32,000 bases of DNA from Candidatus Saccharimonadota bacterium (lineage in GTDB: Bacteria; Patescibacteriota; Gracilibacteria; UBA4473). The notes under the pieces were generated by a model. That model did no database searches, was not told where the DNA came from, and worked only from the letters and a program-made list of their open reading frames with translations. Position 1 is the stretch's first letter. Each line of letters starts with the position of its first letter. Shown in pieces: positions 5,451-29,146 of this stretch. The position numbers and the translations under genes are program-made. The stretch spans positions 600,001 through 632,000 of the forward strand of contig OY781871.1 of NCBI GenBank assembly GCA_963677105.1, given 5' to 3'.

Positions 5451-5486
5451 CTACATCTTAATACAACACTTTTAAACAAAAGTCAA
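5451..5486 (-). promoter_or_regulatory. Internal promoter with leaderless geometry for the 882-aa gene
   Basis: On the minus strand: TTGACT (5486-5481), 17 nt, TATTAA (5463-5458), 7 nt (GATGTAG), then ATG at 5450. The element fills the whole 36-nt gap after the 135-aa gene's stop codon. Confidence 0.6.
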
Positions 5487-5894
5487 TTAAATATCTGATC
5501 GAGCTTGTTCTGCAATAGCTTTTGCTAATTCTTGTTCGTTTGATTCTTCGTCTAGATTCTCTTTTTGTTTTGCTGCACGGAATTCATTACAGAATTTATC
5601 TGCGATTCGCTGCATTTCTTCTTCAGCATTTTTTACATCTTGTTCTTCCATTTTTGGAATATCGTCTTCAAGGGACCGAATCGTTTTATTTACACGATCA
5701 AATTCTACAAGATGACGTTTTTGATTGTCTTCTAAATGTGCCAGTGTTTCATCAATAAATTTTGCTGCTTTTTCATCAATTCCTCCAACTTCAATCACAT
5801 GAGCTATAAAATCTCGTCGTGTGTAAATAGAAATTTCCTCTAGGTTTGTGAACCAATCAAGAAATGTTTCGAATTCAGCTGAAATATTTGTCAT
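5487..5894 (-). CDS. Hypothetical small acidic helical protein (135 aa)
   Basis: The ORF sits between the two giant genes, 11 nt after the 794-aa stop. It is rich in E/D with no TM segment, and I recognise no family. Confidence 0.7.
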   Translation of the reverse strand: MTNISAEFETFLDWFTNLEEISIYTRRDFIAHVIEVGGIDEKAAKFIDETLAHLEDNQKRHLVEFDRVNKTIRSLEDDIPKMEEQDVKNAEEEMQRIADKFCNEFRAAKQKENLDEESNEQELAKAIAEQARSDI

Positions 5895-5905
5895 TTTTAA
5901 TAAAG

Positions 5906-9971: not shown

Positions 9972-10048
9972 CAGATGAAGTGTGTCAAAAATTGTAGTAT
10001 TTTGCAACTTATTCAAAGCTCATGAGTATTTGTTTTGATATATATTAC

Positions 10049-11992: not shown

Positions 11993-14446
11993 ATGAACCA
12001 AACAATTTTAATTGCGGTTGGAATTGGCGCAGGAGTGCTTCTGGGAATGTTTTTTCTTATACGATGGCTGCGCAGACAAAATGATTTTCAACGATCGCTA
12101 GATTTTGTATTTCTTCAAGTACTTATCCCGAAAAAGGAATCAAAAGAAGACCATGAAAGAGAGCGTGATCAGACGAGTGATATGCATAAAGTAGTATCTA
12201 TTGCAGATCATTTTTTTCAATCATTATACGGAATTCATTCTAAAGACATTAACCGGATCTGGAAAAATCAAGATTTCCTTTCTCTTGAATATGTAGCTAA
12301 GAATGGAGAAATCGGACTTTATATTGGTTGTCCACGAGAACTACAGGAAGTCATTGAAAAACAAATTACGAGTTTTTATCCAGAAGCCGTTATCGAGCGA
12401 ACAGAATCGCCAAAAACCTTTCATGAAAAAACATATCAAGTAACGGGATTTTTAACCGGAACTAAAAAATATTTATACCCAATTAAAACATTTAAAAAAT
12501 TCGAATCAGCAGATCCAATCAACAATATATTGAATTCACTTTCCAATGCGTCAGACGATCATGGAAATTCTGCGGCTGTTCAAATTATGATTCGTCCAGC
12601 AAAAGATGTGTGGCAAAAGTCAGCGCGAAAACTATCGAAACAATTAAGTGCTGGGAAAAATCATGCAGCATGGTGGAATCCAATTACATTACTTGGAAAA
12701 ATGTTTGGTTTGTTGGTCAGTGGAGTTGATGATTCTTCAGATGGAGCCGAAGGAGAAAAAGACACGGAATCACAACAAACAACGCAAGCAATAGATGAAA
12801 AAGCAGAACGACACGGATTTGAGACAATTATCCGATGTATAACGAGTTCTCCTCAAAAAAGAATAGCACAAGTGAATATGACTTCGTTATTGAACTCTTT
12901 TAGTCAATATGGAGCACCAGCACTCAATTCTTTATTTCAGCGAAAATGGCACAGTCGTCGCGATTTAGTTGCAAATTTCTTGCTTCGATCTTCTCGTCGT
13001 TCGTGGACAACACGAAACCCACTTTTACTTTCAACAGAAGAATTAGCATCCCTCTTTCATTTTCCACATACGAAATACAATAATATTCCAGGACTGAAAT
13101 GGCAGAATTTTAAAATTGCACCCGTTCCGAAAAATATTCCTCAAAAGGGATTGTATCTCGGAGACAATGTGTATCGTGGTGTGACTCGGCCAGTGTTCTT
13201 GTCGCCAGAAGATCGATTCCGACATTTCTACGTAATTGGACAAACAGGAACTGGTAAATCATCTATTTTTCAAACAATGATTCGTCAGGATTTTCAAGAA
13301 AACAGAGGAGTGTGTGTAATTGATCCACATGGTTCTTTGATTGAATCATTATTACCATTTGTTCCCAAAGAACGAGTAGATGATGTGATAATTTTTGATC
13401 CTTCTGATTTAGAGCGACCGATGGGACTGAATTTGTTGGAAGCAGAGACGGATGAAGAGCGCGATATGGTAGCATTAGATGCTATGAATATTATGATCAA
13501 AATGTTCGACGAAGAAACATTTGGACCACGAATTCAGGATTATTTTCGAAATGGAGTTTTAACATTAATGGCGGATCCTGCGGGAGGAGCTTTGACAGAT
13601 ATTGTTCGCTTGTTTACAGATGACGCGTTTCAGCGAGCGAAAGTTCAACATGTAAAGAATCCGGTGGTAAAAAGCTTCTGGACGAAACAAATGGCGCAAA
13701 CAGGACAACGTGAAAAGCAAGAGATGATACCGTATTTTGCGGCGAAATTTGGAGCGTTTGTGACTAACGCAATGATGCGAAATATTATTGGCCAAACCAA
13801 ATCAGCGTTTGATTTTGCTAAAGTTATGGATGAAGGAAAAATTCTTCTTATGAATCTTTCGAAAGGAATGACCGGAGAAATTAATTCGAAATTGCTCGGA
13901 CTTATTATCGTTTCAAAATTGCAAATGGCAGCGTTGCGACGGCAAAAAAAATTAACGGCGGGACAAAAACCAACAGACTTCTTCCTCTTTATCGATGAGT
14001 TCCAAAACTACGTAACCGATTCGATTGAATCAATTCTCTCTGAAGCACGAAAATACCGATTATCATTAAATATTGCGCATCAATATTTAGGACAAATTGA
14101 TACATCCGGACAAAAGAAGGGATTAAATTTGAAAGAAGCGGTTTTTGGAAATGTGGGAACGATGATGTGTTACAAAATTGGAGCGCAAGATTCAGAAGAA
14201 ATGGCAAAGGAAATGGCACCCGTTTTCTCCGATCAAGATTTATTAAATATTGATGCGTTCAAAGCAGCGATCAAATTAGCAGTTGATGGACAGCCGAGTC
14301 GACCGTTTTCTTTAAACGTTCAGAAGCCGTGGTTTGAGAAAGGAAACGAAAAAATGCCAGACGCATTGAAACAAATTTCTCGATTAACACACGCTCGAAG
14401 TCGGAAGTTTGTGGAGAAAGAGATTTTTACAAGACTTGATGTGTAG
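11993..14446 (+). CDS. TraD/VirD4-like (type IV coupling protein family) membrane ATPase with a long non-ATPase N-terminal domain
   Basis: There is an N-terminal TM segment (IAVGIGAGVLLGMFFLI). The ATPase motifs are Walker A VIGQTGTGKSS, CVIDPHGS, Walker B FLFIDEFQNY and NIAHQYLGQ. Confidence 0.75.
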   Translation: MNQTILIAVGIGAGVLLGMFFLIRWLRRQNDFQRSLDFVFLQVLIPKKESKEDHERERDQTSDMHKVVSIADHFFQSLYGIHSKDINRIWKNQDFLSLEYVAKNGEIGLYIGCPRELQEVIEKQITSFYPEAVIERTESPKTFHEKTYQVTGFLTGTKKYLYPIKTFKKFESADPINNILNSLSNASDDHGNSAAVQIMIRPAKDVWQKSARKLSKQLSAGKNHAAWWNPITLLGKMFGLLVSGVDDSSDGAEGEKDTESQQTTQAIDEKAERHGFETIIRCITSSPQKRIAQVNMTSLLNSFSQYGAPALNSLFQRKWHSRRDLVANFLLRSSRRSWTTRNPLLLSTEELASLFHFPHTKYNNIPGLKWQNFKIAPVPKNIPQKGLYLGDNVYRGVTRPVFLSPEDRFRHFYVIGQTGTGKSSIFQTMIRQDFQENRGVCVIDPHGSLIESLLPFVPKERVDDVIIFDPSDLERPMGLNLLEAETDEERDMVALDAMNIMIKMFDEETFGPRIQDYFRNGVLTLMADPAGGALTDIVRLFTDDAFQRAKVQHVKNPVVKSFWTKQMAQTGQREKQEMIPYFAAKFGAFVTNAMMRNIIGQTKSAFDFAKVMDEGKILLMNLSKGMTGEINSKLLGLIIVSKLQMAALRRQKKLTAGQKPTDFFLFIDEFQNYVTDSIESILSEARKYRLSLNIAHQYLGQIDTSGQKKGLNLKEAVFGNVGTMMCYKIGAQDSEEMAKEMAPVFSDQDLLNIDAFKAAIKLAVDGQPSRPFSLNVQKPWFEKGNEKMPDALKQISRLTHARSRKFVEKEIFTRLDV

Positions 14447-14516
14447 GTTAGATTAAAACCCTAGAAAGGTTTAGTTGAAATATCTTTTAAAAAGAATACA
14501 AAGTCTATACTAAAAA

Positions 14517-15689
14517 ATGCCTACAAAAAATGTCGTTTCTGTAACTCCAGAGGTACTCGTGTGGGCACGAGAAACTGCACATTTATCTATTGTAGGGGCA
14601 TCAAAGAATATTATTCCTCATGAAAAATTATTAAAAATAGAACGGGGAGAAGACTTTCCGACACTTATTCAACTTAGAAATTTAGCTCATAGGTATGATC
14701 GTTCTCTTTCGACTTTAATGGGGAATAAAATCCCGGAAGATGATTACAAAAAGATTCCTTTTTTTAGAAAAGAGAATAAAACGGAGTACGATTCACCATT
14801 AGCATTATTTATTCGTGATATTCAAAAAAAACAAGATTGGGCAAGAAATTATCTGCTAGATGAAGGGATTCCTGCATTGGAATTTATTGGATCAGTTAAA
14901 ATTAAAGATAATCACAAACAGGTTGCCTCCAAAATAAAGGAGCGGTTGGGGCTGCCGTCATTTACGGAATATGGGAGAAGAGAAAGCTATTTTCACGACT
15001 TAAGAACATCCCTAGAAAAAAATAATATATTTGTTTCAGTTACAGGCAGTGATCAGTCTAGTAGAGCTATTTCTCCTGAGCAGGCTCAGGGATTTGCAAT
15101 CCCCGATTCTGTTGCTCCATTTTTATTCGTAAATACTCGAAGTACAATAAATTCAAAAATTTTCACGCTTATTCATGAAGTCGTACATCTTTTTTTGGAT
15201 GAAATGGGAATATCAGAAGACCCTATAAAGTTTCGAAAACCAGATTGTAATGAGGATGAGATAGAAAACTTTTGTAATTTGGTCGCAGCAGAAATCTTGA
15301 TGCCTGAAGATGAATTTAGAGAGCAGTGGGATAAAACAAAAGGGACAATAGAAGAAAGAATTGAGAAAGTAGGACAAAATTTCTTAGTTAGTAGTCTTTC
15401 TGTGTGCGTAAAGGCTTGGCATTTGGGCATAATTTCTGGTCATGATTTTTCAGTTATATTTCCTCACATAAAAGAAAAGATAAATGAGTGGTTACGCATG
15501 AGGGATGAAAAAAGAAAAGAGGCAAATGGTGGTGGAGATTATTATTTAAATATGAGATCTCAAAATGGAATATTGCTGTCTCAATTAGCATTTTATGCAT
15601 ACAAGGGAGGAAATGTAATGGCAACAGAAATTTCAAAAGTATTAACGGTAAAGGTGAGTAATTTTGATAATTATTTTTCGAAAATATAA
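14517..15689 (+). CDS. XRE-type HTH fused to an ImmA/IrrE (COG2856/DUF955) zinc metallopeptidase
   Basis: The N-terminus is HTH-like (LIQLRNLAHRYDRSLSTLMG). The HExxH motif lies in FTLIHEVVHLFLDE. The stop overlaps the next start (TAATG). About 60% of Arg codons are AGR. Confidence 0.8.
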   Translation: MPTKNVVSVTPEVLVWARETAHLSIVGASKNIIPHEKLLKIERGEDFPTLIQLRNLAHRYDRSLSTLMGNKIPEDDYKKIPFFRKENKTEYDSPLALFIRDIQKKQDWARNYLLDEGIPALEFIGSVKIKDNHKQVASKIKERLGLPSFTEYGRRESYFHDLRTSLEKNNIFVSVTGSDQSSRAISPEQAQGFAIPDSVAPFLFVNTRSTINSKIFTLIHEVVHLFLDEMGISEDPIKFRKPDCNEDEIENFCNLVAAEILMPEDEFREQWDKTKGTIEERIEKVGQNFLVSSLSVCVKAWHLGIISGHDFSVIFPHIKEKINEWLRMRDEKRKEANGGGDYYLNMRSQNGILLSQLAFYAYKGGNVMATEISKVLTVKVSNFDNYFSKI

Positions 15690-16246
15690 TGAAATACATA
15701 TTAGATACGAACGTTTATATTGCAGCGTTTCGTGGGTATTATAATCCAGAAATTTGTTCTACATATTGGGAGGTATTACGAGAACTCGGAGAAAAAGAAT
15801 CTATAAAATCCCCAAAGGAAGTAAAAGATGAGATAGAGAGAATAGATGACGACTTATCAGGTTGGGCTAAGAATAAAAATCCTTGTTTTCTGTCAGATGA
15901 TTTAACCGGGATAATGGTTTTTTTTATGAAGGTAAGGGCTTCTTATGATGTTATAAAACAGAATGCAATTTCTCACTGGACGACAGAATTCGCTAAAAAA
16001 GGGCAAAAATATCATTTAAGAGAGGAGCCCATTTCGGATGAGGATATATTTGTCGTTGCAACAGCACTATTTTATCGAAAACATTTTCCTGATCAGGAAG
16101 TCGTGGTCGTAACAAAAGAGATACTAAAAAACAATCCATATAAACCAGTAAGAATCCCTCATTTATGTGATGCAGTTAAGGTTCGATGGATTAATGATTT
16201 TGAGTTCATTAAAGAAATTGGCATTACTCTTGAAGCAAAACTTTGA
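15689..16246 (+). CDS. DUF4411 family protein (PIN-like nuclease fold)
   Basis: The N-terminus MKYILDTNVYIAAFRGYYNPEICSTYWEVL...DDDLSGWAK matches my memory of the DUF4411 pattern (yllDaNvfI.A...YY..icp.FW). It overlaps the ImmA gene by 1 nt. Confidence 0.8.
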   Translation: MKYILDTNVYIAAFRGYYNPEICSTYWEVLRELGEKESIKSPKEVKDEIERIDDDLSGWAKNKNPCFLSDDLTGIMVFFMKVRASYDVIKQNAISHWTTEFAKKGQKYHLREEPISDEDIFVVATALFYRKHFPDQEVVVVTKEILKNNPYKPVRIPHLCDAVKVRWINDFEFIKEIGITLEAKL

Positions 16247-16314
16247 TTAAAAAAACACTTTACCACTCTCCACTTTCGCTTTTAATATAGATATTTATCG
16301 AGCGTAATATCTTT
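16247..16314 (-). pseudogene. Decayed copy of the recG 3' end (last ~22 codons plus stop)
   Basis: Nt 16248-16313 align with 17055-17121 at 56 of 61 positions by hand, outside a substituted 5-vs-6-nt block. Read on the minus strand it gives KDITLDKYLY* and then, one frame over, KAKVESGKVFF*. The recG C-terminus is KEDITLNKYPRLKAKVERGDVFF*. Confidence 0.8.
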
Positions 16315-16968
16315 CTATTTCCCGAAATTTCGTTGAATTCCCTTGAAGTATTTCACAGCGTCTTCTAAATCTTTCTCATTGAATTCTGGCCAATATTTAT
16401 CGAGAAATAAAAGATCAGTATATGTTCCTTGCCACGGAAGAAAATTAGACAATCGTTTGTGTCCACCAGTTCGAATAATCAAATCTGGTTCGAGACTCGA
16501 ATATAAATTCTGCGAGATAGTTTCTTCAGAAAATTCTTCCCCATTTTCCTGAATTTTTTTACACGCAGAAACGATTTCCGCTCGTCCTCCATAACTCAAG
16601 CAAACCTGAAATAAAAGTCCCGTACATTCTTGTGTAGCACGTTCCAATTCTTCGAGAGATTTAGCTGTTTCTGGACGAATGAGATCCAAGTTTCCCATAA
16701 GGTGTACTTTGATATTTTTCTGTACAAATTCTTCTTTTGGTTTTGCAAACTTCTCAATCAAATCAAACAAATCATCGAGTTCCTTTTGTTCTCGTTTCAA
16801 ATTTTCTGTTGAAAGCGCGTAGATTGTAAAAACATCAACATTGTATTTTGGACACCAATCCAAAACAGATTTTAAAACATCGATTCCTGTTTTATGTCCG
16901 AGCACTTTTTTCCATCCTTTTATTTTCGCCCATCTGCGATTTCCGTCCATGATTGCCGCTATGTGCAT
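16315..16968 (-). CDS. uppS: Undecaprenyl-diphosphate synthase (cis-isoprenyl transferase)
   Basis: HIAAIMDGNRRWA, FTIYALSTENLKR, DLIIRTGGHKRLSNFLPWQ and the C-terminal RNFGK are UPPS family motifs. The N-terminus is short. Confidence 0.9.
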   Translation of the reverse strand: MHIAAIMDGNRRWAKIKGWKKVLGHKTGIDVLKSVLDWCPKYNVDVFTIYALSTENLKREQKELDDLFDLIEKFAKPKEEFVQKNIKVHLMGNLDLIRPETAKSLEELERATQECTGLLFQVCLSYGGRAEIVSACKKIQENGEEFSEETISQNLYSSLEPDLIIRTGGHKRLSNFLPWQGTYTDLLFLDKYWPEFNEKDLEDAVKYFKGIQRNFGK

Positions 16969-17053
16969 GTGAGTGATTTAGTTACAACTGGTACGAACAT
17001 ACACAAAAAAAGAAAGAGGTGAAATTTTTATATATAAAAATGAAATATGTTCA

Positions 17054-19069
17054 CTAAAAAAACACATCACCACGTTCCACTTTCGCTTTTAGTCGTGGAT
17101 ATTTATTGAGCGTAATATCTTCTTTTAATATTTGAATAGCCCAATCACGAGCATCCTGAAGCATTTGCAAATCGGATAAATCGGCACATTTAAATTCAGG
17201 AAGTCCCGATTGTTTTGTTCCATAGAGTTCCCCCATTCCGCGAAGTTCGAGATCGATTTCCGCTAACTTTTGTCCAGAATTATGTTTCTCCATTGCGCGC
17301 AGTCGAGCAGTGTTTTTATTGTCTTCATTTGTCATGAGGAAACAATATGACTGCATTGAGTTTCGTCCAATTCTTCCACGGAACTGATGCAATTGTGCGA
17401 GTCCAAAACGTTCCGCATTTTCAATCACCATGACAGTTGCATCTGGAATATCAACACCAACTTCGATTACACTGGTAGAGACGAGAATATCGAATTCTTT
17501 CTTTTTAAATCGTGCCATAATTGAGTCTTTTTCGCGCGCCTTCATCTTCCCATGCAAAAATTCTACTTTTCTGTTTGAAAATACTTGTCGAATTCGCTCA
17601 TATTCACTGAGAACACTTTTGGCTTCTATTTTGTCTGATTCATCAATAAGCGGACATACCCAGAAAATCTGACGTTTCTTTTCAATTTGAGAGTCCATGA
17701 AAATCTCCATTTTCTGTTTTTCTTTTTCAGCGGAAACAACACGCGTAATAATTGGCTGACGTCCGGGAGGAAGTTCATCAATAATTGATAAATCTTGATC
17801 ACCGTACACTGTTAACGCGAGCGTTCGTGGAATTGGCGTTGCTGTCATGGCGACGATATGACAATTATTTTCCGCTAAAATGGCGCGCTGCCGAACACCA
17901 AATCGATGTTGTTCGTCTATAATGGCAAGTCCAAGATTTTTAAATACCGTGTCTTCGGTCAAAATTGCGTGCGTTCCAATCAACACATCTATTTGTCCGG
18001 TACGAAGTTTTGTTTTAATTTTTTCCTTATTTCCTGCAGTAGTTGCTCCAATCAATAATTCACAACGAACATTTGTTCCAAAAAATTTTAATGCATTTGC
18101 AAAATGTTGTTGTGCTAGAATCGCCGTTGGAGCCAAAAACGCCACTTGATTTCCTGATCGCACAAGTGCTGCTGCTGCCAGAATTGCCACAATTGTTTTT
18201 CCACTTCCAACATCTCCTTGCACAAGTCTGTGCGCCGTTCGATCGAGTTCGAAATCTTTTAAAATAGAGAAGAGAACTTTCTTTTGTGCGGTGGTAAGTT
18301 CAAAAGGAACTTTTTTCAAATCTTTTTTTACTGGTTCTGCATCAAACGAAATCTTGTATGGATTTTTTGCAGATTGCTCACGAATAAATTTTTGACGAAG
18401 TACACGAATTTGAATTTCAAAAATTTCTTCAAATGCTAATCTTGCTCGGGCAGCACTCCATTGTTCCACACTTTCTGGTGTATGAATTTGTTTTACAGCC
18501 TCAGATTTTCCCAGCAGATTCCTGTTTTCTAATATTTCTTTTGGTAAAATTTCTTGAAACTCTTTTCTAAAAATAAGACAGCCTGCAATTTTTTCTCGCA
18601 ACCACTTACTTGTGATAGGCGGAGATTCTGGATAAATTGCTCGCAATCTGCCGACATGTACATTTCTTTCAAAATGTATTTCAGGATTGGAAATCTGTAT
18701 TTTTCCGTAATTTCTCGTAACTTTTCCAACAAGCCATACTCGGGATTCTCCCTGAAAGTTTTTTAATTTATAAGGAACCACAAACCATACGACATCAATA
18801 GTTGATCTATCTCGTAAAACAAGAGCGGCGCGTCCAAGTTTTTTTCCACGAGCGGTTTTCTCCACTCGAAAATCACATAAATTTCCCACAAGTGTGTTTT
18901 TTTCTCCTAATTTTATTTCAGAAAAAAGAGAAATTTCATTTGTGGATTCTAATGCACGAGGAAAAAATTCTAATAAGTTTAATACGGTTTTAATGCCGAT
19001 TTGATCGAGTTTTTTAATATGTGCAGATGTGGTTTTTAGCACAGATTTTAATGACAAATTGAGATTCAT
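17054..19069 (-). CDS. recG: ATP-dependent DNA helicase RecG
   Basis: There is a wedge/OB N-terminal region, then helicase motifs GDVGSGKT, DEQHRFG and MTATPIPRTL, and the C-terminal QLHQFRGRIGR. I chose ATG 19069 (MNLNLSL...); the listed ORF starts at TTG 19108. Confidence 0.92.
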   Translation of the reverse strand: MNLNLSLKSVLKTTSAHIKKLDQIGIKTVLNLLEFFPRALESTNEISLFSEIKLGEKNTLVGNLCDFRVEKTARGKKLGRAALVLRDRSTIDVVWFVVPYKLKNFQGESRVWLVGKVTRNYGKIQISNPEIHFERNVHVGRLRAIYPESPPITSKWLREKIAGCLIFRKEFQEILPKEILENRNLLGKSEAVKQIHTPESVEQWSAARARLAFEEIFEIQIRVLRQKFIREQSAKNPYKISFDAEPVKKDLKKVPFELTTAQKKVLFSILKDFELDRTAHRLVQGDVGSGKTIVAILAAAALVRSGNQVAFLAPTAILAQQHFANALKFFGTNVRCELLIGATTAGNKEKIKTKLRTGQIDVLIGTHAILTEDTVFKNLGLAIIDEQHRFGVRQRAILAENNCHIVAMTATPIPRTLALTVYGDQDLSIIDELPPGRQPIITRVVSAEKEKQKMEIFMDSQIEKKRQIFWVCPLIDESDKIEAKSVLSEYERIRQVFSNRKVEFLHGKMKAREKDSIMARFKKKEFDILVSTSVIEVGVDIPDATVMVIENAERFGLAQLHQFRGRIGRNSMQSYCFLMTNEDNKNTARLRAMEKHNSGQKLAEIDLELRGMGELYGTKQSGLPEFKCADLSDLQMLQDARDWAIQILKEDITLNKYPRLKAKVERGDVFF

Positions 19070-19082
19070 TACGATAATTGTA
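19070..19082 (-). promoter_or_regulatory. -10 box with leaderless spacing for recG
   Basis: On the minus strand TACAAT (19082-19077) lies 7 nt before ATG 19069. The only TTGCAA upstream (19108-19103) is 20 nt away, across T9-C-T8. Confidence 0.4.
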
Positions 19083-19102
19083 CAAAAAAAAGAAAAAAAA
19101 AC

Positions 19103-19131
19103 TTGCAAAAAGATTTAAGTTGCCGGAAAAT
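19103..19131 (+). promoter_or_regulatory. Putative promoter of the 135-aa pilin-like gene
   Basis: TTGCAA (19103-19108), 17 nt, GAAAAT (19126-19131). The leader of about 55 nt contains the hairpin CTCGC-AAAA-GCGAG (19145-19158). Confidence 0.35.
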
Positions 19132-19190
19132 TCGTAACGAAGACCTCGCAAAAGCGAGTCAACACACAATTTCTCTTACTCCATTAAAAA

Positions 19191-19598
19191 ATGAAAATAA
19201 AAAAATTTATAGCTCCATTATTTGGATTACTTCTTGCTGTTGGAGTGTTTACTCTTGGAGGAGATGTTTCAGCACAACTTATTAGTGATTTGGATAATCC
19301 AGAAAATATCGCATTAGCGACAGGAGGAGAAGGATCATTCAGAGTTATTTTACGAACAATCATTAATTTCGTACTCTACTTCCTTGGATTGATTGCTACA
19401 ATTATGGTGATCTATGGGGGATTTCTTTATATTACTTCTCAAGGAGAGGATACAGAGAAAGCAAAAAAAGTACTTTTGTATGCAGCAATTGGTATTGTTA
19501 TCATTTTGATCTCATTCGCACTGGTAAATACATTGTTGGGAGCAGCAGCAAAGAATGGAAGTGAGTCTACAATACAAAGTAGCGGACAGTCCTTTTAG
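19191..19598 (+). CDS. TrbC/VirB2-like 'T4SS pilin' family small membrane protein
   Basis: It has a signal peptide (MKIKKFIAPLFGLLLAVGVFTLGGDVSA). A two-TM hairpin follows with a charged loop: IATIMVIYGGFLYITSQGEDTEKAKKVLLYAAIGIVIILISFALV. Confidence 0.7.
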   Translation: MKIKKFIAPLFGLLLAVGVFTLGGDVSAQLISDLDNPENIALATGGEGSFRVILRTIINFVLYFLGLIATIMVIYGGFLYITSQGEDTEKAKKVLLYAAIGIVIILISFALVNTLLGAAAKNGSESTIQSSGQSF

Positions 19599-19620
19599 TA
19601 AGGAAAAAAGAAAACTTAAA

Positions 19621-19645
19621 AAATCCCGCATTGCGGGATTTTTTT
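19621..19645 (+). terminator. Rho-independent terminator after the pilin-like gene
   Basis: A perfect 9-bp stem AAATCCCGC (19621-19629) / GCGGGATTT (19633-19641) has the loop ATT and runs into T7. Confidence 0.8.
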
Positions 19646-19726
19646 ATATAAAAAGTTATTTATTTTTTCTGTTCGAATGTGGGTTTGAAAAAATGTATTT
19701 ACCAGTGGATTGGAGGAGATCTTTTT

Positions 19727-19755
19727 TTGTATTTCATGTAATTATCCGATACAAT
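19727..19755 (+). promoter_or_regulatory. Promoter with leaderless geometry for ftsK
   Basis: TTGTAT (19727-19732), 17 nt, TACAAT (19750-19755), 8 nt, then ATG 19764. No Shine-Dalgarno site. Confidence 0.6.
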
Positions 19756-19763
19756 AATGACTG

Positions 19764-22049
19764 ATGGCAAGATCTCGTAAATCGACTCCCAGCGTAAAAA
19801 TTCCAGCATCAGTTCTTCGACGTGAAGCACAAAAAGCTGCGAAAAAAATGATTATGGCAGAAAAGAAAAAAGAACGACTTCGTGAAACACGTGAGAAAGC
19901 AAAAAAAAGAGCAAAATTACAGATAGAAAAAAAGAAAACACAGAAGAATAAGACAGAAGAAGTTTTTGATTTATCTTTTCAGAGAGAACTATGGGCAAGT
20001 GGATGGATTTTATTAGGAATATTATTCATTACGTTATTTGTGAGCAAGGCGACTATTTCACAAACAATAACGAGAGAACTATTTCAATTATTTGGAATTG
20101 GAGTATGGGGACTTCCGATTATCACAACATTCGTGGGAATTGTTTTATTGGTAAAACGAGAATACGAATTTCTCACGGTACGGATTGCGGCACTCATTGG
20201 AGTATTAGTCTCTGTGTTGGGAGTAATAAATTTGTTTGTGGCACAAGAAGAATCTCTTGCATTGGCCCATAAATACGGAGGAGTACTGGGGTTTACAGTC
20301 GGATTTTTTCCTCGTGAATTTTTCGGAACAGGAGTTACGGCAGTTTTATTGTCTGGATTGACTTGGTTTTGTGTAACGGTTGGATTTAATATTCGTTGGT
20401 CTCAGTTTTTATTAAATGCTCCTGAGGAAATTAAAATCAAAAAAAGCTCAGATGAAACAGAAAAAGGAAGTGCAAAACCTGAGAAACAAGAATCTATTCC
20501 GAAATCTCGATTTGCTAACGAATTAGAGATTGTTGATACGACACGAGCAAAAGAAGCGAGAAAAACAGAAATAAAATTAGAACAAAAAGACGAATTAACG
20601 GAAGCAAAAAATCGTGCGATTGAAGGACAATGGGAGCCACCATCAATTGATTTATTAAAAAAACAGACTTCTACTATTACAGTAAACGAGAAAAAACTCC
20701 GTGATAATGCAGAAAAAATTCGTGAAAAATTAGAACAATTTGGCATTGAAGTGACCATGAAGTCAGTTCATGTAGGACCGACAGTAACACAATTTACGTT
20801 TACTCCTGCGCCAGGAGTAAAATTGACAAAAATTACTGGATTAAAGAATGATTTAGCGCTTACTTTAGCTGCGGAATCTATTCGTTTAGAAGCACCAATT
20901 CGAGGAAAAAGTCTTGTTGGACTTGAAATTCCAAATGAAAAAAGAGCAAATGTTGGAATGAGAGAAATTATCGAATCAGATGCTTGGGAAGACCATACGT
21001 CTCTTTTAAAACTTGCTGTAGGACGAGATGTGGCCGGAAAACCAATTGTGATTGATTTAGCGAAAATGCCACATCTTCTCATTGCGGGAAAAACGGGATC
21101 TGGAAAATCAGTCGGAATGAATGCCTTTTTGTGTAGTTTACTCTGGAATAATTCTCCTTCAAACTTACGTCTTATTTTGATTGATCCGAAACGAGTAGAA
21201 TTAAAACGATACGATAAATTACCACATCTTTTGACACCGGTAATTGTTGAGCCGGAAAAATCAGTATCTGCCCTCGCTTGGGCGGTTGCGGAAATGAATC
21301 GTCGATATAAAATGTTGTCGGAAGCGAGTGTGGTAAATTTAGATCAATACAACGAAAAATTCCCAGAAAAAAAGGAGCCGAAAATTGTAATTGTGATTGA
21401 TGAGTTGGCAGATTTAATGATGGTTGCTGGGAAAGATGTGGAAGCAGCGGTAGTTCGAATTGCTCAACTCGCTCGAGCAGTTGGAATGCATTTGATTATT
21501 GCAACGCAGAGACCCTCAGTAGATGTAGTAACAGGATTGATTAAGGCGAATTTACCTGCAAGAATTGCCTTTCGCGTATCATCACAGATTGATTCACGAA
21601 CAATTATTGATGGGATGGGAGCAGAAAGTTTACTTGGATTAGGAGACATGCTTTCTCTCGATGGGAATTCTGGAGCGCTTACTCGAGTGCAAGGAATTTA
21701 TATTTCTAATGAAGAAGTTTCTCGCATTGTAAATCACATTAAATTACAGTTTCCTGAGATGATTGCGAATGATGAAGTAACGACTCAATCAATTGAAGGA
21801 ATGGCAAAAGGCGGGGTTTTAACAGCCGGAACACAAAGAGATGTGGCGGATGACGATTTAGACTCTCTTTTTGAAGATGCAGTGAATTTAGTTATTGAAA
21901 CGGGAAAAGCATCTGCAAGTTTTTTCCAGCGTCGATTAGAAGTAGGATATGCTCGTGCGGCTCGAATACTTGATCAAATGGAAGGTCGAGGAATTGTTGG
22001 TCCAGCACGTGGAGCAAAACCGCGTGAAGTTTTTGGTCGACAAGAATGA
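19764..22049 (+). CDS. ftsK: DNA translocase FtsK/SpoIIIE
   Basis: A K-rich N-terminal tail and TM segments precede GKTGSGKS and VIVIDELADLM. The C-terminal winged-helix gamma domain reads FFQRRLEVGYARAARILDQMEGRGIVG. Confidence 0.92.
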   Translation: MARSRKSTPSVKIPASVLRREAQKAAKKMIMAEKKKERLRETREKAKKRAKLQIEKKKTQKNKTEEVFDLSFQRELWASGWILLGILFITLFVSKATISQTITRELFQLFGIGVWGLPIITTFVGIVLLVKREYEFLTVRIAALIGVLVSVLGVINLFVAQEESLALAHKYGGVLGFTVGFFPREFFGTGVTAVLLSGLTWFCVTVGFNIRWSQFLLNAPEEIKIKKSSDETEKGSAKPEKQESIPKSRFANELEIVDTTRAKEARKTEIKLEQKDELTEAKNRAIEGQWEPPSIDLLKKQTSTITVNEKKLRDNAEKIREKLEQFGIEVTMKSVHVGPTVTQFTFTPAPGVKLTKITGLKNDLALTLAAESIRLEAPIRGKSLVGLEIPNEKRANVGMREIIESDAWEDHTSLLKLAVGRDVAGKPIVIDLAKMPHLLIAGKTGSGKSVGMNAFLCSLLWNNSPSNLRLILIDPKRVELKRYDKLPHLLTPVIVEPEKSVSALAWAVAEMNRRYKMLSEASVVNLDQYNEKFPEKKEPKIVIVIDELADLMMVAGKDVEAAVVRIAQLARAVGMHLIIATQRPSVDVVTGLIKANLPARIAFRVSSQIDSRTIIDGMGAESLLGLGDMLSLDGNSGALTRVQGIYISNEEVSRIVNHIKLQFPEMIANDEVTTQSIEGMAKGGVLTAGTQRDVADDDLDSLFEDAVNLVIETGKASASFFQRRLEVGYARAARILDQMEGRGIVGPARGAKPREVFGRQE

Positions 22050-23030: not shown

Positions 23031-24734
23031 TTATTTCAACAACAACATTTTTCGTACTTCAGCAAAAGACTCTGTTTGAAGTTTATAGAAATATGTTCCA
23101 GAGCTTACAGAAGCTCCAGAATCATTTTTTCCACTCCATTTAACTTCGTGATTTCCGCCATGAAAGGCTGGAAAACTTTTTACTAGTTGACCTTTGATAT
23201 TGAAAATTTCAAACCTTGCTACTTCACCTTCCTTTACGGAAAACGAAATAGTAGTAGAAGGATTAAATGGATTTGGGTAAGCTGGATTCAATTGATTTTC
23301 AATTGTACCAGGGACTCCTTCTTCATCTTCTTCAGCCTTAATTTCAATAGAAATTGGGCCAAAGAGCTCAGAAGATCCATCAATCTCAACACTCTCCAAC
23401 CAATAGAAATACTGGTTGTCCGTTTCCACATCTTCATCTGTGAAAGAATAAAATTCTCCACAGGATGAGTTTGATGCAGAAATAGAAGACATCTGCAATG
23501 AGGAGTTAATATTTTCAGAATTGTTTCTGAGAATATTGAATCCCATCAGAGATGTTTCTGATTGAGTTGTCCAATTAATTTTTGCAAAATTTTCTGCTGT
23601 TTGAACGGCAGAGAATGATGACAATTCGACAGGAAGGGTTTGATCTTCGAAATTAAAATAAAATGAATCAATTTCTCTGGTTTCAAGGACTTCAATTACT
23701 TGAAGATTTTCTTGTCCAGTAAGTGGTCCAGATTTTTGATTTGATACATCTAAATAATATGCATCATTAGTTAATCCAAAATTTTCGAGAGGAACGATAT
23801 TACGGACTAGGTTCCCCCAAAGATTTAAATATCTAAAATTTGTTAATCCAGAAATAGGACTCAAATCACTCACTTGATTATTATAAAAGGCTAGCGACTC
23901 AAGATTTGTTAATCCAGAAATAGGACTCAAATCACTCACTTGATTATTAGAAAAACTTAGCGACTCAAGATTTGTTAATCCAAAAACAGGACTCAAATCA
24001 CTTACTTGATTATTAGAAAAACTTAGCGACTCAAGATTTGTTAACCCAGAAATAGGATTCAAATCATTCACTTGATTATAATACAAACCTGTATTATTAT
24101 AAAAGGCTAGCGACTCAAGATTTGTTAATCCAGAAATAGGACTCAAATCACTCACTTGATTATTAGAAAAAATTAGATACTCAAGACTTATTAATCCAGA
24201 AATAGGGCTCAAATCACTTACTTGATTATTAGAAAAACTTAGCGACTCAAGATTTGTTAATCCAGAAATAGGATTCAAGTCACTCACTAAATTATTAGCA
24301 AAACGTATCTTCTTAAGACTTATTAATCCAGAAATAGGGCTCAAATCACTCACTTGATTGCTGCCAAAAGTTAGAGTCTCAAGATTTGTTAATCCAGAAA
24401 TAGGATTCAAATCACTTATTTGACTTTTGATCAAATGTATCTGCTTAAGATTTGTTAATCCAGAGATAGGGCTCAAATCACTCACTTGATTATAATAAAA
24501 ACTTATCGTTTCAAGATTTGTTAAATATTGTGCACCTTCCATTGATATAATGTCTATGTTGAAACTATAGATATCAGTTATTGTCCCTAATTCCGCAACG
24601 TTTGGCTCATGATCAGCTGCCTGACCAAGTTCTTCATTGATTACCATTTTGAAGTTATTGTCTGGAATCAATGTTCCGAACAGACTTCCTAAACTTACTA
24701 CTAAAATTATTGCTATGATTATTATGTTTTTCAT
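23031..24734 (-). CDS. Secreted leucine-rich-repeat protein with a T9SS type-A (Por_Secre_tail/FlgD-Ig-like) C-terminal domain
   Basis: It begins with a signal/anchor (MKNIIIIAIILVVSLGSLFG). About 11 22-aa LRRs follow (LTNLESLSFSNNQVSDLSPISG), then an LPVELSSF...W beta domain. The C-terminus is YPNPFNPSTTISF...GTYFYKLQTESFAEVRKMLLLK. AGGAGG lies 5 nt before the ATG. Confidence 0.85.
   Translation of the reverse strand: MKNIIIIAIILVVSLGSLFGTLIPDNNFKMVINEELGQAADHEPNVAELGTITDIYSFNIDIISMEGAQYLTNLETISFYYNQVSDLSPISGLTNLKQIHLIKSQISDLNPISGLTNLETLTFGSNQVSDLSPISGLISLKKIRFANNLVSDLNPISGLTNLESLSFSNNQVSDLSPISGLISLEYLIFSNNQVSDLSPISGLTNLESLAFYNNTGLYYNQVNDLNPISGLTNLESLSFSNNQVSDLSPVFGLTNLESLSFSNNQVSDLSPISGLTNLESLAFYNNQVSDLSPISGLTNFRYLNLWGNLVRNIVPLENFGLTNDAYYLDVSNQKSGPLTGQENLQVIEVLETREIDSFYFNFEDQTLPVELSSFSAVQTAENFAKINWTTQSETSLMGFNILRNNSENINSSLQMSSISASNSSCGEFYSFTDEDVETDNQYFYWLESVEIDGSSELFGPISIEIKAEEDEEGVPGTIENQLNPAYPNPFNPSTTISFSVKEGEVARFEIFNIKGQLVKSFPAFHGGNHEVKWSGKNDSGASVSSGTYFYKLQTESFAEVRKMLLLK
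23775..24524 (-). repeat. Tandem 66-bp coding repeats (LRR array)
   Basis: Units such as CCAGAAATAGGACTCAAATCACTCACTTGATTATTAGAAAAACTTAGCGACTCAAGATTTGTTAAT recur head-to-tail and in frame with few substitutions. One unit carries an 18-nt insertion. Confidence 0.9.
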
Positions 24735-26132: not shown

Positions 26133-27671
26133 TTACGCAGCGCCAGCGAAGACAAAGTAGTAAACAAGTGTCCAAGAAGAAAGTGCGAGGATAAGACCAA
26201 TCGCAGCGCTTTTGATAATTTTTTTTGCATCCTCCACTTGTGTGTCATCACCAAAATGAACAATCATTTTTATTCCTGCATAAATCATCGCAATAACGGC
26301 AAGAATTCCAATAAAACTTAAAAGGAAATTTAGCCATTTTGCTACAATCAAAATCATTCCTTTTATATTCGGCATCACTAGTTGATTATTATCTGTAAAT
26401 GTATCAATAATTGGTCGAATTGAAATAATGAGAATAAGTCCCATCATAGAGAGGAAAATTCGTCTTTTAATATCAGTTTTTTTCCCATCCTCTCCTGCAG
26501 AAATAATTAATAAAATTGCGTTATATACAATAAAAGCAATAGCGATAATTGCGAGGAAAGATGTAAACATATCGAATACTCCACTTACTTCTTCGAGTCC
26601 TCGTTGAGCAAAATCTGCCGTATCAGCAGTTCTTAATATTTCACCATTGCGACCAAAAATAACCCAATCAACAATCGTCACAGCGAATGTCATCGTTAAA
26701 AATCCTAAAAGAATTCCAATCAAATTATGAACTTTTTTATTCAGTTTTTCTTCGTCTTGAAATAGTACAAAAATTTCAATTCCACTATAAGCGAGCAGCA
26801 TAATAGCAATTGGAATCATTACCTTTTTCATAACACCAATAACTCTTTCTACTATAGATCGAAACTGACTTGTTCCTTCAGAATTTGTTCCAGTGTAATC
26901 AAAAAGATCAGTTTCTTTTCCAAGAAATGTTCCTTTAGAAGCGTCTTGACCATTGAATCGTTGAAATAGTACAGAAGAATCTGGCACAGTAAATCCCATT
27001 TCTTGCCAAGTTCCAGTAAACCAAGCAACTCTATATGCAATAGCTTTTCCAAGAACTGCATATGCGGCTTTCATTTTCTTCTCTTTCCGACTTTCATCTC
27101 CATTAACAACAACAATTGGACCTGTTAATTTTCGGCCATTAATGCCAATAATTGCACGAATATGAGTTATTCCATCGAATTCTCGGTTTTTACTTATAAT
27201 TTGAACTTCATCGGCAATATTTATCGATTCAAAATAAATAGCAACAGTACTTACATCAATTGCGTTTAATTTCATTGCAGCATATTCCGGTTCTAAATCT
27301 TTTGGAACCCAAAAATCTGTAATAAGAGGTTTATCATGTTCATTTAATTTCACATTAATTGCTCCAATTGCAGCATTTCCAAGGATTATTTTTTGTCGTA
27401 ACTCAGTGTCATTCACAGAATCAAAAAATAATAATTTAATGTCTATAGTGGGAATAAGATCAGAATCACCAGTTGAAACAGTTGCTTCAGTCGCATTGGT
27501 AATAGAATATGGTTGTGGTTCGGGGAGAGGATTTACAGTTGCAGTCGTTATCGTTAAAGTTCGATATGGTTCTTTTTCAGATACGACATTATCTGGAACA
27601 ACATCATTTGCAAAAGTTACTCCCGTTAGAAACGGAATCGCAATAAGAAGAAGCCAGAATAATTTTTTCAT
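26133..27671 (-). CDS. Membrane protein with a signal peptide, a ~270-aa extracellular domain and three tandem VirB2/TrbC-like pilin hairpin modules
   Basis: The three hairpins are ...AYSGIEIFVLFQDEEKLNKKVHNLIGILLGF..., ...YNAILLIISAGEDGKKTDIKRRIFLSMMGLIL... and ...YAGIKMIVHFGDDTQVEDAKKIIKSAAIGLILALSS.... The start abuts the upstream stop with a 0-nt gap. Confidence 0.7.
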   Translation of the reverse strand: MKKLFWLLLIAIPFLTGVTFANDVVPDNVVSEKEPYRTLTITTATVNPLPEPQPYSITNATEATVSTGDSDLIPTIDIKLLFFDSVNDTELRQKIILGNAAIGAINVKLNEHDKPLITDFWVPKDLEPEYAAMKLNAIDVSTVAIYFESINIADEVQIISKNREFDGITHIRAIIGINGRKLTGPIVVVNGDESRKEKKMKAAYAVLGKAIAYRVAWFTGTWQEMGFTVPDSSVLFQRFNGQDASKGTFLGKETDLFDYTGTNSEGTSQFRSIVERVIGVMKKVMIPIAIMLLAYSGIEIFVLFQDEEKLNKKVHNLIGILLGFLTMTFAVTIVDWVIFGRNGEILRTADTADFAQRGLEEVSGVFDMFTSFLAIIAIAFIVYNAILLIISAGEDGKKTDIKRRIFLSMMGLILIISIRPIIDTFTDNNQLVMPNIKGMILIVAKWLNFLLSFIGILAVIAMIYAGIKMIVHFGDDTQVEDAKKIIKSAAIGLILALSSWTLVYYFVFAGAA

Positions 27672-28811
27672 TTAACGAATAAGAAAACGAACGAGAACGT
27701 AACTTGCAGAAGCAATAATAATTCCCAAAATACTAGTTTTAATCATTCCTTTTGCTTTTGTTGTTTGCTCCTCGTTTCCAAAGCTAATTACAAAATACAG
27801 ACTTGAAAGAACAAGCATTGCCATTGCTGCAATAGCGACTAATGAAAGCACGAAATTTATAAGTCCAGCAACTTCTGTTACAACCATTTCAGTTGTTTTG
27901 TCTGCGGAATCTTGGAACGAGAAAATACGTATAATAATTTCTGACATCAATATCATAATTGATCCCATTATCATCGACTTGAAGAAAGTTTTAATAAAAG
28001 TAGAAGATTCTTCTCCTTCACCATTCATAACCAATTTGTATCCTGTGATAAGGGCACTGACAAGGAAAAATGCCCCTGCTGAATATTCAAAGAATCGGAC
28101 AATGGCACTGACCTTTTCAGATAATTTAATTTGAGTAGAAGTAGACAAAACCTCATTTCCAGACGGATTAAAGAGCTCGAACCCAATAAATTCTGCAAGA
28201 GAAATAATTGTTAACCCCAGAACGGTCCAAGCGAGCTGTTGTTTATATTGAGTGATTTTTTCTTCGTCTCCCATTGCCATTATATATTTCAGTCCCAATA
28301 TAACTATAAAAAGAATGGCAAGTGCTCCAAGAATACGATTAACGGTTCGTAATAATTCTCCAGTAAAAATAGAGCGTAATTTATCTTGAGTTGTTTTAGT
28401 TAAGCCGTCTCCGATACGCATTACAATATTTTTCGTAAAAGCAGAATCATAATTCTCATCAGACAAAACGAGTTGGTTTGTACTAGAACAAAGATCAATT
28501 GCGGAATCAGAAGCTTTTACAACGGCTTTATATTTTTCTTTGGCAAGATTATGATCGTTACTATTAAATGCGATGTTTCCCGCAAGAAATTCGTCATTTG
28601 ATTCTATTTGATAGGAGAGAGATTCTTTATAAGAAGTAGAACTTTTTGTCGCTGCTTCACATGTAGATACCATTGTTTCATGAATTGCTTCTGCCTGCAA
28701 TTTTGCATGATTTGCTTCCTGGAGAAGGAGATCAGCTTCAGAATTATCTGCCTGAGCAATGTTGCCGAGACAAAGTATCGAGAAAGTAAGTACGAGAAAG
28801 AGTTTCTTCAT
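27672..28811 (-). CDS. Membrane protein with a signal peptide, a ~150-aa extracellular domain and three tandem VirB2/TrbC-like pilin hairpin modules
   Basis: I chose ATG 28811 (MKKLFLVLTFSILCLGNIAQA) on signal-peptide and promoter geometry; the listed ORF extends to 28874. The hairpins are LKYIMAMGDEEKITQYKQQLAWTVLGL, YKLVMNGEGEESSTFIKTFFKSMIMGS and LYFVISFGNEEQTTKAKGMIKTSILGIIIASAS. Confidence 0.7.
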   Translation of the reverse strand: MKKLFLVLTFSILCLGNIAQADNSEADLLLQEANHAKLQAEAIHETMVSTCEAATKSSTSYKESLSYQIESNDEFLAGNIAFNSNDHNLAKEKYKAVVKASDSAIDLCSSTNQLVLSDENYDSAFTKNIVMRIGDGLTKTTQDKLRSIFTGELLRTVNRILGALAILFIVILGLKYIMAMGDEEKITQYKQQLAWTVLGLTIISLAEFIGFELFNPSGNEVLSTSTQIKLSEKVSAIVRFFEYSAGAFFLVSALITGYKLVMNGEGEESSTFIKTFFKSMIMGSIMILMSEIIIRIFSFQDSADKTTEMVVTEVAGLINFVLSLVAIAAMAMLVLSSLYFVISFGNEEQTTKAKGMIKTSILGIIIASASYVLVRFLIR

Positions 28812-28818
28812 TCCAGAC

Positions 28819-28847
28819 ATTATACATAAAAAAGTCTTTTTCTTCAA
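28819..28847 (-). promoter_or_regulatory. Strong promoter with leaderless geometry for the pilin-module operon
   Basis: On the minus strand: TTGAAG (28847-28842), 17 nt, TG-extended TATAAT (28824-28819), 7 nt (GTCTGGA), then ATG 28811. Confidence 0.7.
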
Positions 28848-28909: not shown

Positions 28910-29146
28910 ATGTTAATAGCGTTACTACTGGTTCCCGTGGGAATACTCGTGATTGTTAAATCTGCTCGAATAGGGGACTTTTTTGGAGAAATTTCTTTTG
29001 CTGAAAAAGTTTTTGGGAGCGGAGGAACATATACATTCATAAAATTGTTTGGCGTTATTATAACAATTCTCTCCATTATGTGGTTGACCGGTGGTCCGCA
29101 AGAGTTCTTGCGAAATCATCTTAACATATTTTTTGGAGGTTCCTGA
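28910..29146 (+). CDS. Hypothetical small membrane protein (78 aa, two predicted TM helices)
   Basis: The hydrophobic helices are LIALLLVPVGILVIV and LFGVIITILSIMWL. An in-frame TGA at 28892 blocks any upstream extension. A possible promoter is TTGACA (28854-28859), 16 nt, TAAACT. Confidence 0.55.
   Translation: MLIALLLVPVGILVIVKSARIGDFFGEISFAEKVFGSGGTYTFIKLFGVIITILSIMWLTGGPQEFLRNHLNIFFGGS

Follow-up and report, generated by a model that had tools for sequence, protein, structure and literature searches.

Tandem genes of a Patescibacterium encode three VirB2-like pilin hairpins each behind variable N-terminal domains

We analyzed a 32,000-nucleotide (nt) stretch of a Patescibacteria genome deposited as Candidatus Saccharimonadota bacterium (assembly GCA_963677105.1, contig OY781871.1, positions 600,001 to 632,000; hereafter, the window), in which two adjacent genes, A379 and B512, each encode a signal peptide, an ectodomain unrelated to that of the neighbor, and three consecutive two-helix modules that profile comparisons assign to the pilin family of type IV secretion systems (T4SS). 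Both products are predicted Sec-exported membrane proteins of an ultra-small bacterium of the Peribacteria/Gracilibacteria class within the candidate phyla radiation (CPR), and with moderate confidence we interpret them as a fused VirB2-like pilin array of a Patescibacterial T4SS, in which a fixed hetero-oligomeric hairpin unit would display variable surface domains. VirB2-like pilin arrays of Patescibacteria are already known; new are the 3 + 3 fusion of hairpins and its combination with ectodomains, a form that is conserved and apparently undescribed. The literature searched, a limited library, makes no mention of several pilin hairpins fused in one polypeptide. In Ca. Southlakia epibionticum, the only Patescibacterium examined by genetics, epibiotic growth requires both the T4SS and its VirB2-like pilin array (PMC10633639).

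Gene pair and membrane topology

The window has a G+C content of 36% and is read with genetic code 11, TGA serving as a stop codon in ATGA overlaps. The start of A379 is an ATG that forms codon 22 of a 400-amino acid (aa) open reading frame (ORF) beginning with TTG; orthologues share the same MKK start, and the succession of MKK, a hydrophobic stretch, and an AxA pattern is conserved at their N-termini. The TAA stop codon of A379 abuts the ATG of B512 in frame (TAAATG, 27669..27674, minus strand). Read-through under code 25, which would join the two products into a protein of 892 aa, was considered and rejected: the intervening stop is TAA, TGA acts as a stop elsewhere in the window, and B512 starts with its own signal-like segment. 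A379 and B512 are therefore two genes under code 11.

Kyte–Doolittle hydropathy revealed the N-terminal signal-like segment in both proteins, six transmembrane (TM) segments in B512, and five in A379. The sixth TM helix of A379, the first of its second hairpin (approximately residues 233 to 262), falls under the hydropathy threshold and was located via the module alignment. Each protein has six TM helices, which pair into three hairpins. Because the signal peptide looks cleavable and the TM helices are even in number, the predicted topology places the N-terminus outside, the hairpin loops (G-D/E-D/E...K) in the cytoplasm, and the C-terminus outside, as in VirB2 before assembly; lysine and arginine counts do not discriminate.

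Hairpin modules and their relationship to VirB2/TrbC

The six modules and the hairpin of C135, a stand-alone protein encoded elsewhere in the window (Table 1), align nearly gap-free and have in common the G-[DE]-[DE]...K...G pattern that the preliminary description had pointed out; pairwise identity among the six is 16% to 36%. Against Pfam PF18895 (T4SS_pilin), the curated gathering cut-off of which is 26.6 bits, A379, B512, and C135 scored 56.6, 53.1, and 41.8 bits, respectively, as whole proteins, all above the cut-off, and C135 is indeed the single-copy relative that it had been taken for. Module by module, A1, A3, and B3 pass, B2 lies just under the cut-off, and A2 and B1 gave no match (Table 1).

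The lack of a Pfam pilin match for A2 and B1 and the low identity between modules would both be expected if the repeats were merely hydrophobic helices of alike composition. We built an independent hidden Markov model (HMM) that was seeded from the five Pfam-positive modules, without A2 and B1, and rebuilt after collecting 533 modules from 146 unrelated proteins. On this HMM, A2 and B1 scored 40 to 42 bits, whereas 200 composition-preserving shuffles of each averaged approximately 0 and reached at most 12.1 (A2) and 9.6 (B1) bits; the reversed sequences remained below 5 bits. All six modules are therefore real rather than a product of TM composition. The shuffled-sequence control that had been proposed thus disposes of generic TM composition, and, with null hhalign controls and with every module class kept across 13 loci (see below), the chance explanation is refuted. 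By these profile scores, all three modules in each of A379 and B512 belong to the T4SS_pilin family.

Matches to the classical family PF04956 (TrbC/VirB2; gathering cut-off 27.9 bits) were all below the cut-off for the window proteins, with C135 at 25.8 bits (E = 1.2e-5), followed by A1 (Table 1) and B3 (E = 0.018), and above it in three related multi-hairpin proteins, P0071 (41.5 bits), P0074 (41.9 bits), and P0144 (28.5 bits). A tblastn search of plasmids with the TrbC-positive P0074 yielded nothing useful. B512 reached the threshold of NCBIfam NF045849 (40.5 bits; cut-off 40), and C135 and A379 scored 30.9 and 27.0 bits. The pilin-family match on which the original proposal depended was thus obtained, significantly for both proteins with PF18895 and at threshold for B512 with NF045849. 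For profile–profile comparison, six real virB2 and six real virB6 genes of mating-pair formation type T (MPF_T) were taken from plasmids. Aligned by hhalign to the six VirB2 proteins, the 533-module profile gave a probability of 77.8% (P = 1.9e-5) over 66 columns, corresponding to the whole hairpin, whereas the reversed profile and 20 column-shuffled profiles gave at most 0.5%. The PF04956 and NF045849 scores, combined with the hhalign match and its null controls, identify the hairpin module as a distant but real relative of VirB2/TrbC.

Both proteins share with the classical pilins VirB2, TrbC, and TraA (PF04956; the T-pilus, RP4, and F pili) a two-helix hairpin, a short charged loop, a predicted signal-peptide-dependent insertion, and a profile similarity that is significant but distant. 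They depart from the rule of one hairpin per small protein, each having three hairpins and an ectodomain of 130 to 250 aa, whereas a classical pilin consists of a single hairpin of approximately 70 to 120 aa with no ectodomain; classical pilins, moreover, assemble into homopolymers, frequently undergo cyclisation or acetylation, and have their genes within a T4SS operon of diderms. The pilin-like conjugal transfer protein of the Mbov_0395 family (NF045849), found in integrative and conjugative elements (ICEs) of Mycoplasma, is likewise described by a hairpin profile of 80 aa and belongs to the T4SS of a wall-less monoderm, but it is a single small protein without concatenation or ectodomain, encoded on an ICE beside a VirB4-like ATPase.

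Conservation and history of the gene pair

Word-indexed searches retrieved 9 homologues of B512 and 18 of A379, at 37% to 60% identity overall and 37% to 56% for the A379 set, and a scan of species-representative genomes located the A family in metagenome-assembled genomes (MAGs) of Candidatus Gracilibacteria and Candidatus Peribacteria. In the window and in all 13 related loci where both genes are complete, the A gene has three modules and so does the B gene directly after it; three truncated contigs agree with this pairing, and no counter-example was found among the Gracilibacteria and Peribacteria loci examined. The modules fall into six separate orthologous classes of ancient divergence, one for each position and arranged as A1-A2-A3 | B1-B2-B3: across loci, identity is 39% to 57% within a class versus 17% to 32% between classes, and the nearest neighbor belongs to the same class for 76 of the 78 A- and B-class modules. 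The A and B families are collinear when compared by hhalign, with hairpins 1, 2, and 3 and the linkers of one aligning to those of the other (probability 98.8%, E = 6.9e-17). By this alignment A and B are collinear paralogues, and their history likely involved an ancestral triple-hairpin gene, its tandem duplication, and then ectodomain gain.

VirB2-like pilins (PF04956/PF18895) have been reported in 1,948 Patescibacteria assemblies, 383 of which contain arrays of 2 to 11 pilin genes averaging 25% identity (PMC12102498); two adjoining genes with six divergent pilin-family modules constitute an array of this kind. The T4SS cluster of Ca. Southlakia epibionticum includes a series of essential pilins (PMC10633639), counted as six and divergent in sequence (PMC12857230). 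Patescibacterial arrays such as that of Ca. S. epibionticum ML1 resemble the pair in family (PF18895), in phylum, and in having divergent paralogous hairpins side by side, and the ML1 array also agrees with A379 and B512 in its total of six hairpins. In contrast to these arrays, the pair has three hairpins fused per protein behind large variable ectodomains, and its surroundings are housekeeping genes and not a virB4 cluster. Natural fusions constitute “Rosetta stone” evidence: because the order of the six classes and their 1:1 stoichiometry are maintained throughout a CPR class, the paralogues would appear to co-assemble into one defined hetero-oligomer rather than to serve as interchangeable antigenic variants. 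The fixed order and the short linkers also restrain which hairpins can be neighbors and could guide modeling of the complex.

The chains of hairpins might instead be polyproteins in which signal peptidase I or a dedicated protease cleaves behind every hairpin, on the outer face, to give equimolar single pilins and ectodomains that are either free or anchored by the first hairpin. Classical VirB2/TrbC pilins are heavily processed, and fusion would guarantee stoichiometry. In addition, the second helices run from inside to outside like a signal peptide, are preceded by a basic loop, and contain a small-x-small motif (SLA, LMS, SAS, TFA, LSS), so that cleavage there is topologically possible. These motifs lie mid-helix, however, where they are equally suited to helix packing, and none occurs in B2; the linkers are short (11 to 20 aa) and 39% to 59% identical, which is unexpected for mere spacers, and the module order, which a polyprotein does not need, is invariant over approximately 35% to 55% protein divergence. 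We therefore regard such processing as very unlikely.

Ectodomains

The ectodomains of A379 and B512 are unrelated to each other (BLASTP E = 17), and neither matched a Pfam family. After the signal peptide they extend over approximately 130 and 250 aa, close to the earlier estimates of 150 and 270 aa; together with the PF18895 and HMM results, the outline of each protein as a signal peptide, a non-homologous ectodomain, and three VirB2/TrbC-like hairpins is borne out. The helical bundle predicted by AlphaFold2 (AF2) for the A379 ectodomain (Table 1) has a predicted local distance difference test (pLDDT) score of 86 to 90 over aa 30 to 110. This ectodomain contains two conserved cysteines, C51 and C108, a pair that fits an extracellular location, and its mean identity to orthologues is 24%. 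Identity of the B512 ectodomain to orthologues rises from 22% (aa 22 to 95) through 38% (aa 96 to 194) to 59% (aa 195 to 272), that is, from a hypervariable N-terminal part to a conserved membrane-proximal part.

Among orthologues of A379 and B512, identity is 22% to 24% over the N-terminal ectodomain regions versus 50% to 74% over the hairpins, and the flanking housekeeping genes of the four closest loci are 67% to 84% identical. Within the A and B families, the stretch before the first hairpin varies in length from approximately 50 to 797 aa. Judged from these comparisons, the ectodomains are the variable, fast-evolving part of A and B, and they are candidate host-recognition determinants.

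Multi-hairpin proteins in other lineages

To place the gene pair among other proteins, we relied on an exhaustive HMMER search of the module profile against 1.84 billion cluster representatives, which returned 53,691 matches at E ≤ 1e-3 and 228 at E ≤ 1e-30. The top 150 matches all have at least 3 modules, with a maximum of 16 in a 1,775-aa protein according to HMMER, or 17 by domain HMM, and 146 of these 150 fall outside the A and B homologue sets, including 26 B-type and 17 A-type proteins, the rest being other multi-hairpin families. A word-indexed search with the same profile yielded single-hairpin proteins only and is uninformative on the taxonomy of multi-hairpin ones. On the strength of the profile matches, multi-hairpin pilin proteins, which make up at least 228 clusters with three or more hairpins, are a recurrent minority architecture that is not peculiar to the window. 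The architecture had been called atypical, which holds relative to classical T4SS pilins but has to be qualified, as multi-hairpin proteins recur in metagenomes and arrays of single-hairpin genes have already been described (PMC12102498).

The ectodomains recognized in these proteins include a subtilase domain in the B-type protein P0107 and a CarboxypepD_reg-like domain in the A-type protein P0071, and a PKD domain is found on a single-hairpin gene beside an 8-hairpin gene. Arrays also occur in other forms. Five single-hairpin genes stand in a row in a Paceibacteria locus (L017); an attempt to map these five pilins to the six classes gave no one-to-one correspondence, all being generic or S-like. 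Mixed arrays encode 1 + 3 + 1 + 4 + 1 hairpins (L028, 4333..7556) and 8 + 1 + 1 hairpins (L018, 9925..16481); they probably belong to CPR lineages and lie next to a 718-aa PKD-repeat protein. Proteins of 17 and 10 hairpins (L020, 10001..15328; L021, 10001..12901 and 12997..20973) are encoded on contigs with archaeal markers (ribosomal protein L39e, Trm1, AF_0843, and Cas4), and because of these markers poly-pilin proteins may extend to archaea. Seven consecutive genes of L021 each encode one hairpin and an extra region of 250 to 450 aa. The recurrence of proteins with 3 to 17 hairpins, including those on archaeal-looking contigs, suggests an unrecognized poly-pilin family.

This diversity could also be explained without any role in a T4SS, the hairpin having been co-opted in CPR bacteria and some archaea as a generic multi-pass anchor or oligomerization module for surface enzymes and adhesins. 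Neither the pair nor any of the other multi-hairpin genes examined has T4SS genes beside it, the recognized ectodomains (subtilase, PKD, and CarboxypepD_reg-like) are of kinds typical of surface proteins, and the seven-gene series of L021 would suit such a function. On the other hand, in most Patescibacteria with VirB4 the pilin genes are near virB4 (1,135 of 1,948 assemblies), a scattered arrangement of T4SS genes is known from Gracilibacteria, and the pilins are essential in Ca. S. epibionticum (PMC12102498). Strict keeping of six hairpin classes, moreover, exceeds what an anchor needs, and we consider a generic anchor quite unlikely.

Relationship to VirB6

A further alternative is that the triple-hairpin, 6-TM proteins never polymerize and stay in the cytoplasmic membrane, where they would serve the T4SS as its polytopic channel or platform subunit in place of the VirB6/PrgH homologue undetected in Gracilibacteria, with ectodomains comparable to the hydrophilic domains of “extended” VirB6. 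VirB6 has been reported as undetected in Gracilibacteria and scarce in Microgenomatia (PMC12102498), and six TM helices combined with a hydrophilic domain resemble extended VirB6 (PMC12857230). Homology of the N-terminal part of CedA/VirB6 with its cognate pilin has been reported (PMC9905601); approximately residues 19 to 70 of VirB6 align weakly with both VirB2 (P = 0.016) and the module profile (P = 0.0043), and the fixed module order and conserved linkers would suit a defined polytopic fold. More generally, VirB6, TrbL, CedA, and TedA are polytopic, with five or more helices and, in some cases, large hydrophilic domains, but they show no significant sequence or profile match here and are not built of three recognizable pilin repeats. 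Neither A379 nor B512 matched PF04610 (TrbL/VirB6) or PrgH in Pfam searches even at E values up to 1. VirB6 homology of the module profile was rejected, since hhalign against the six real VirB6 proteins was weak (probability at most 7.9%) and a control two-TM family was similarly weak against VirB2 and against the module profile. Proteins of 8 to 17 hairpins are, furthermore, unlike VirB6. Pilin array and VirB6 coexist in Ca. S. epibionticum (PMC12857230), so arrays do not generally replace VirB6. On balance, a VirB6-type platform is unlikely.

Poly-pilin proteins nevertheless bear on the proposed evolutionary link from VirB2 pilins to VirB6 channels. A bolder proposal, which we consider distinctly unlikely, is that the concatenated hairpins are the “missing” VirB6-type translocon or assembly platform of the T4SS of the Gracilibacteria class and a living intermediate, VirB6/CedA channels having arisen from concatenated VirB2-type hairpins. 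More broadly, the VirB2 hairpin would be a modular block that CPR bacteria and some archaea use in chains of 3 to 17 units, the resulting fixed hetero-oligomeric assemblies, in the membrane or as filaments, bearing enzymes and adhesins.

Proposed assembly and evidence weighing against it

In the fused-array interpretation that we prefer, the A-B pair would be the counterpart of the multi-gene VirB2-like arrays belonging to the Patescibacterial T4SS, as the existence of single-hairpin (L017) and mixed (L028 and L018) arrays in other lineages suggests. The six linked hairpins would form a helical bundle of fixed stoichiometry in the membrane, a hetero-oligomer that may nucleate, cap, or anchor a pilus-like polymer of the stand-alone pilin, or may simply stay in the membrane, and the unit would display its variable ectodomains on the surface of the cell or pilus for contact with the host cell. 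The minor-pilin complexes GspI-J-K and PilVWX/PilY1 offer an analogy only: there, distinct paralogues in fixed stoichiometry prime or cap a filament and can carry an adhesin, but fold and machinery are unrelated and the polypeptides separate, and no homology is claimed. A membrane-embedded base, a surface-display scaffold, and a polyprotein had initially been left open; the evidence favors a surface-displaying hetero-oligomeric hairpin unit.

Several observations weigh against the fused-array interpretation. To our knowledge, no pilus has been seen in this lineage. A large N-terminal domain and the covalent joining of hairpins may prevent incorporation into the five-start lattice of T4SS pili; the unit might stay in the membrane throughout. 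Arrays elsewhere do not keep to six pilins. No VirB4, VirB3, VirB6, or VirB8 gene was found near the pair, either in the 32-kb window or within 10 kb on each side in related loci, the neighbors being housekeeping genes (dnaG, mutY, ftsK, and recG); hairpin homology is consequently what argues for membership in a T4SS apparatus. The missing VirB4 neighbor is weak negative evidence, because T4SS genes have been reported to lie scattered in Gracilibacteria (PMC12102498). Structure prediction gave AF2 models of A379 and B512 of low confidence (pLDDT 67 and 59; predicted template modeling score 0.31 to 0.39). A Foldseek search of the PDB with both models brought up generic helical repeats and nothing at E ≤ 1e-3, and a sequence-profile search of PDB chains with the module returned G protein-coupled receptor noise (E ≥ 0.3) and no pilin structure.

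Genomic neighborhood

Table 1. Features of the window: positions, strands, and supporting details.
Feature	Position	Strand	Details
Gene A379	27672..28811	minus	ORF; signal peptide, ~130-aa ectodomain, and three VirB2-like hairpins (classes A1-A2-A3)
A379 signal peptide	28749..28811	minus	aa 1-21, ...NIAQA|DN; from hydropathy; putative cleavage site
A379 ectodomain	28356..28748	minus	~130 aa; AF2-predicted three-helix bundle (aa 25-109), then conserved juxtamembrane segment
Hairpin A1	28167..28355	minus	aa 153-215; PF18895 42.2 bits; TrbC E = 1.1e-3; independent HMM 67.6 bits
Hairpin A2	27915..28115	minus	aa 233-299; divergent; no Pfam match; independent HMM 40.3 bits
Hairpin A3	27675..27875	minus	aa 313-379; PF18895 29.7 bits; independent HMM 71.0 bits
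Gene B512	26133..27671	minus	ORF; signal peptide, ~250-aa ectodomain, and three VirB2-like hairpins (classes B1-B2-B3)
B512 ectodomain	26856..27608	minus	aa 22-272, ~250 aa; alpha/beta in AF2 model, pLDDT 65-88 over aa 80-220
Hairpin B1	26652..26855	minus	aa 273-340; divergent; no Pfam pilin match; independent HMM 42.2 bits
Hairpin B2	26394..26591	minus	aa 361-426; PF18895 26.0 bits; independent HMM 61.7 bits
Hairpin B3	26136..26360	minus	aa 438-512; PF18895 44.3 bits; independent HMM 80.4 bits
Promoter-like site TTGAAG-17-TATAAT	28819..28847	minus	10/12 consensus match
78-aa two-TM protein	28910..29146	plus	Divergent from A379
C135, single-hairpin pilin (class S)	19191..19598	plus	Candidate polymerizing subunit; PF18895 41.8 bits
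VirD4-like (type IV coupling protein-type) membrane ATPase	11993..14446	plus	817 aa; DUF87, TrwB_AAD_bind, TraG-D_C

Three further genes of the window may relate to the pair. C135 is 81% identical to its orthologue in the related locus L001, and its counterparts lie 5 to 6 kb from the A-B pair in 8 loci. The gene for the 78-aa protein adjoins gene A in 15 related loci, at 48% to 77% identity and with an invariant GGTY.F.K motif, and its product is a possible dedicated partner for A and B. It matched no family in Pfam or NCBIfam and aligned to VirB2 and to the pilin module by hhalign at background level, and a role as a further pilin or as VirB3 was rejected on these grounds. The 817-aa ATPase, the sole other T4SS-related gene in the window, lies 11.7 kb from the pair and is in loose synteny with it in L001 and L004; it is weakly VirD4/TraD/CedD-like, its score against NF045973 (VirD4-like) being 48 bits, far under the cut-off. 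It is 95% identical to its L004 orthologue, versus 68% to 83% for the housekeeping genes around it.

The pair had been described as an operon that has the strongest promoter in the window and appears to run on into mutY. The promoter-like site, the −10 element of which ends 8 nt ahead of the A379 ATG and thereby suggests a leaderless or near-leaderless mRNA, is matched by three other 10/12 sites within the same 5 kb, where the total of 20 sites does not exceed chance expectation (15.1 ± 4.8), so the case for a strongest promoter is weak. The 43-bp gap between B512 and mutY contains no terminator-like site, so co-transcription is possible. As a functional operon partner, mutY was rejected: it directly follows B in only 8 of the 13 related loci, an adjacency that looks like general synteny, and in many loci a block of mutY, ftsK, pfkB, a single pilin gene, and recG comes next.

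Between pfkB and mutY, the window encodes a 567-aa leucine-rich-repeat protein with a C-terminal FlgD_ig/Por_Secre_tail-like domain (23031..24734, minus strand); L001 has an unrelated 263-aa gene in the same slot, which therefore looks like a variable surface-protein site. Overlapping genes at 14517..16246 (plus strand) encode a 390-aa Peptidase_M78 protein resembling ImmA/IrrE and a DUF4411/PIN-like protein of 185 aa, which together look like a toxin-antitoxin or defense-type module, and the corresponding interval of L001 contains other genes. Finally, three consecutive genes at 2802..8290 (minus strand) encode proteins of 794, 135, and 882 aa without a TM segment or Pfam family, and next after this trio, at 8466..10016, follows a gene for a 516-aa single-TM protein with a weak match to DUF4012.

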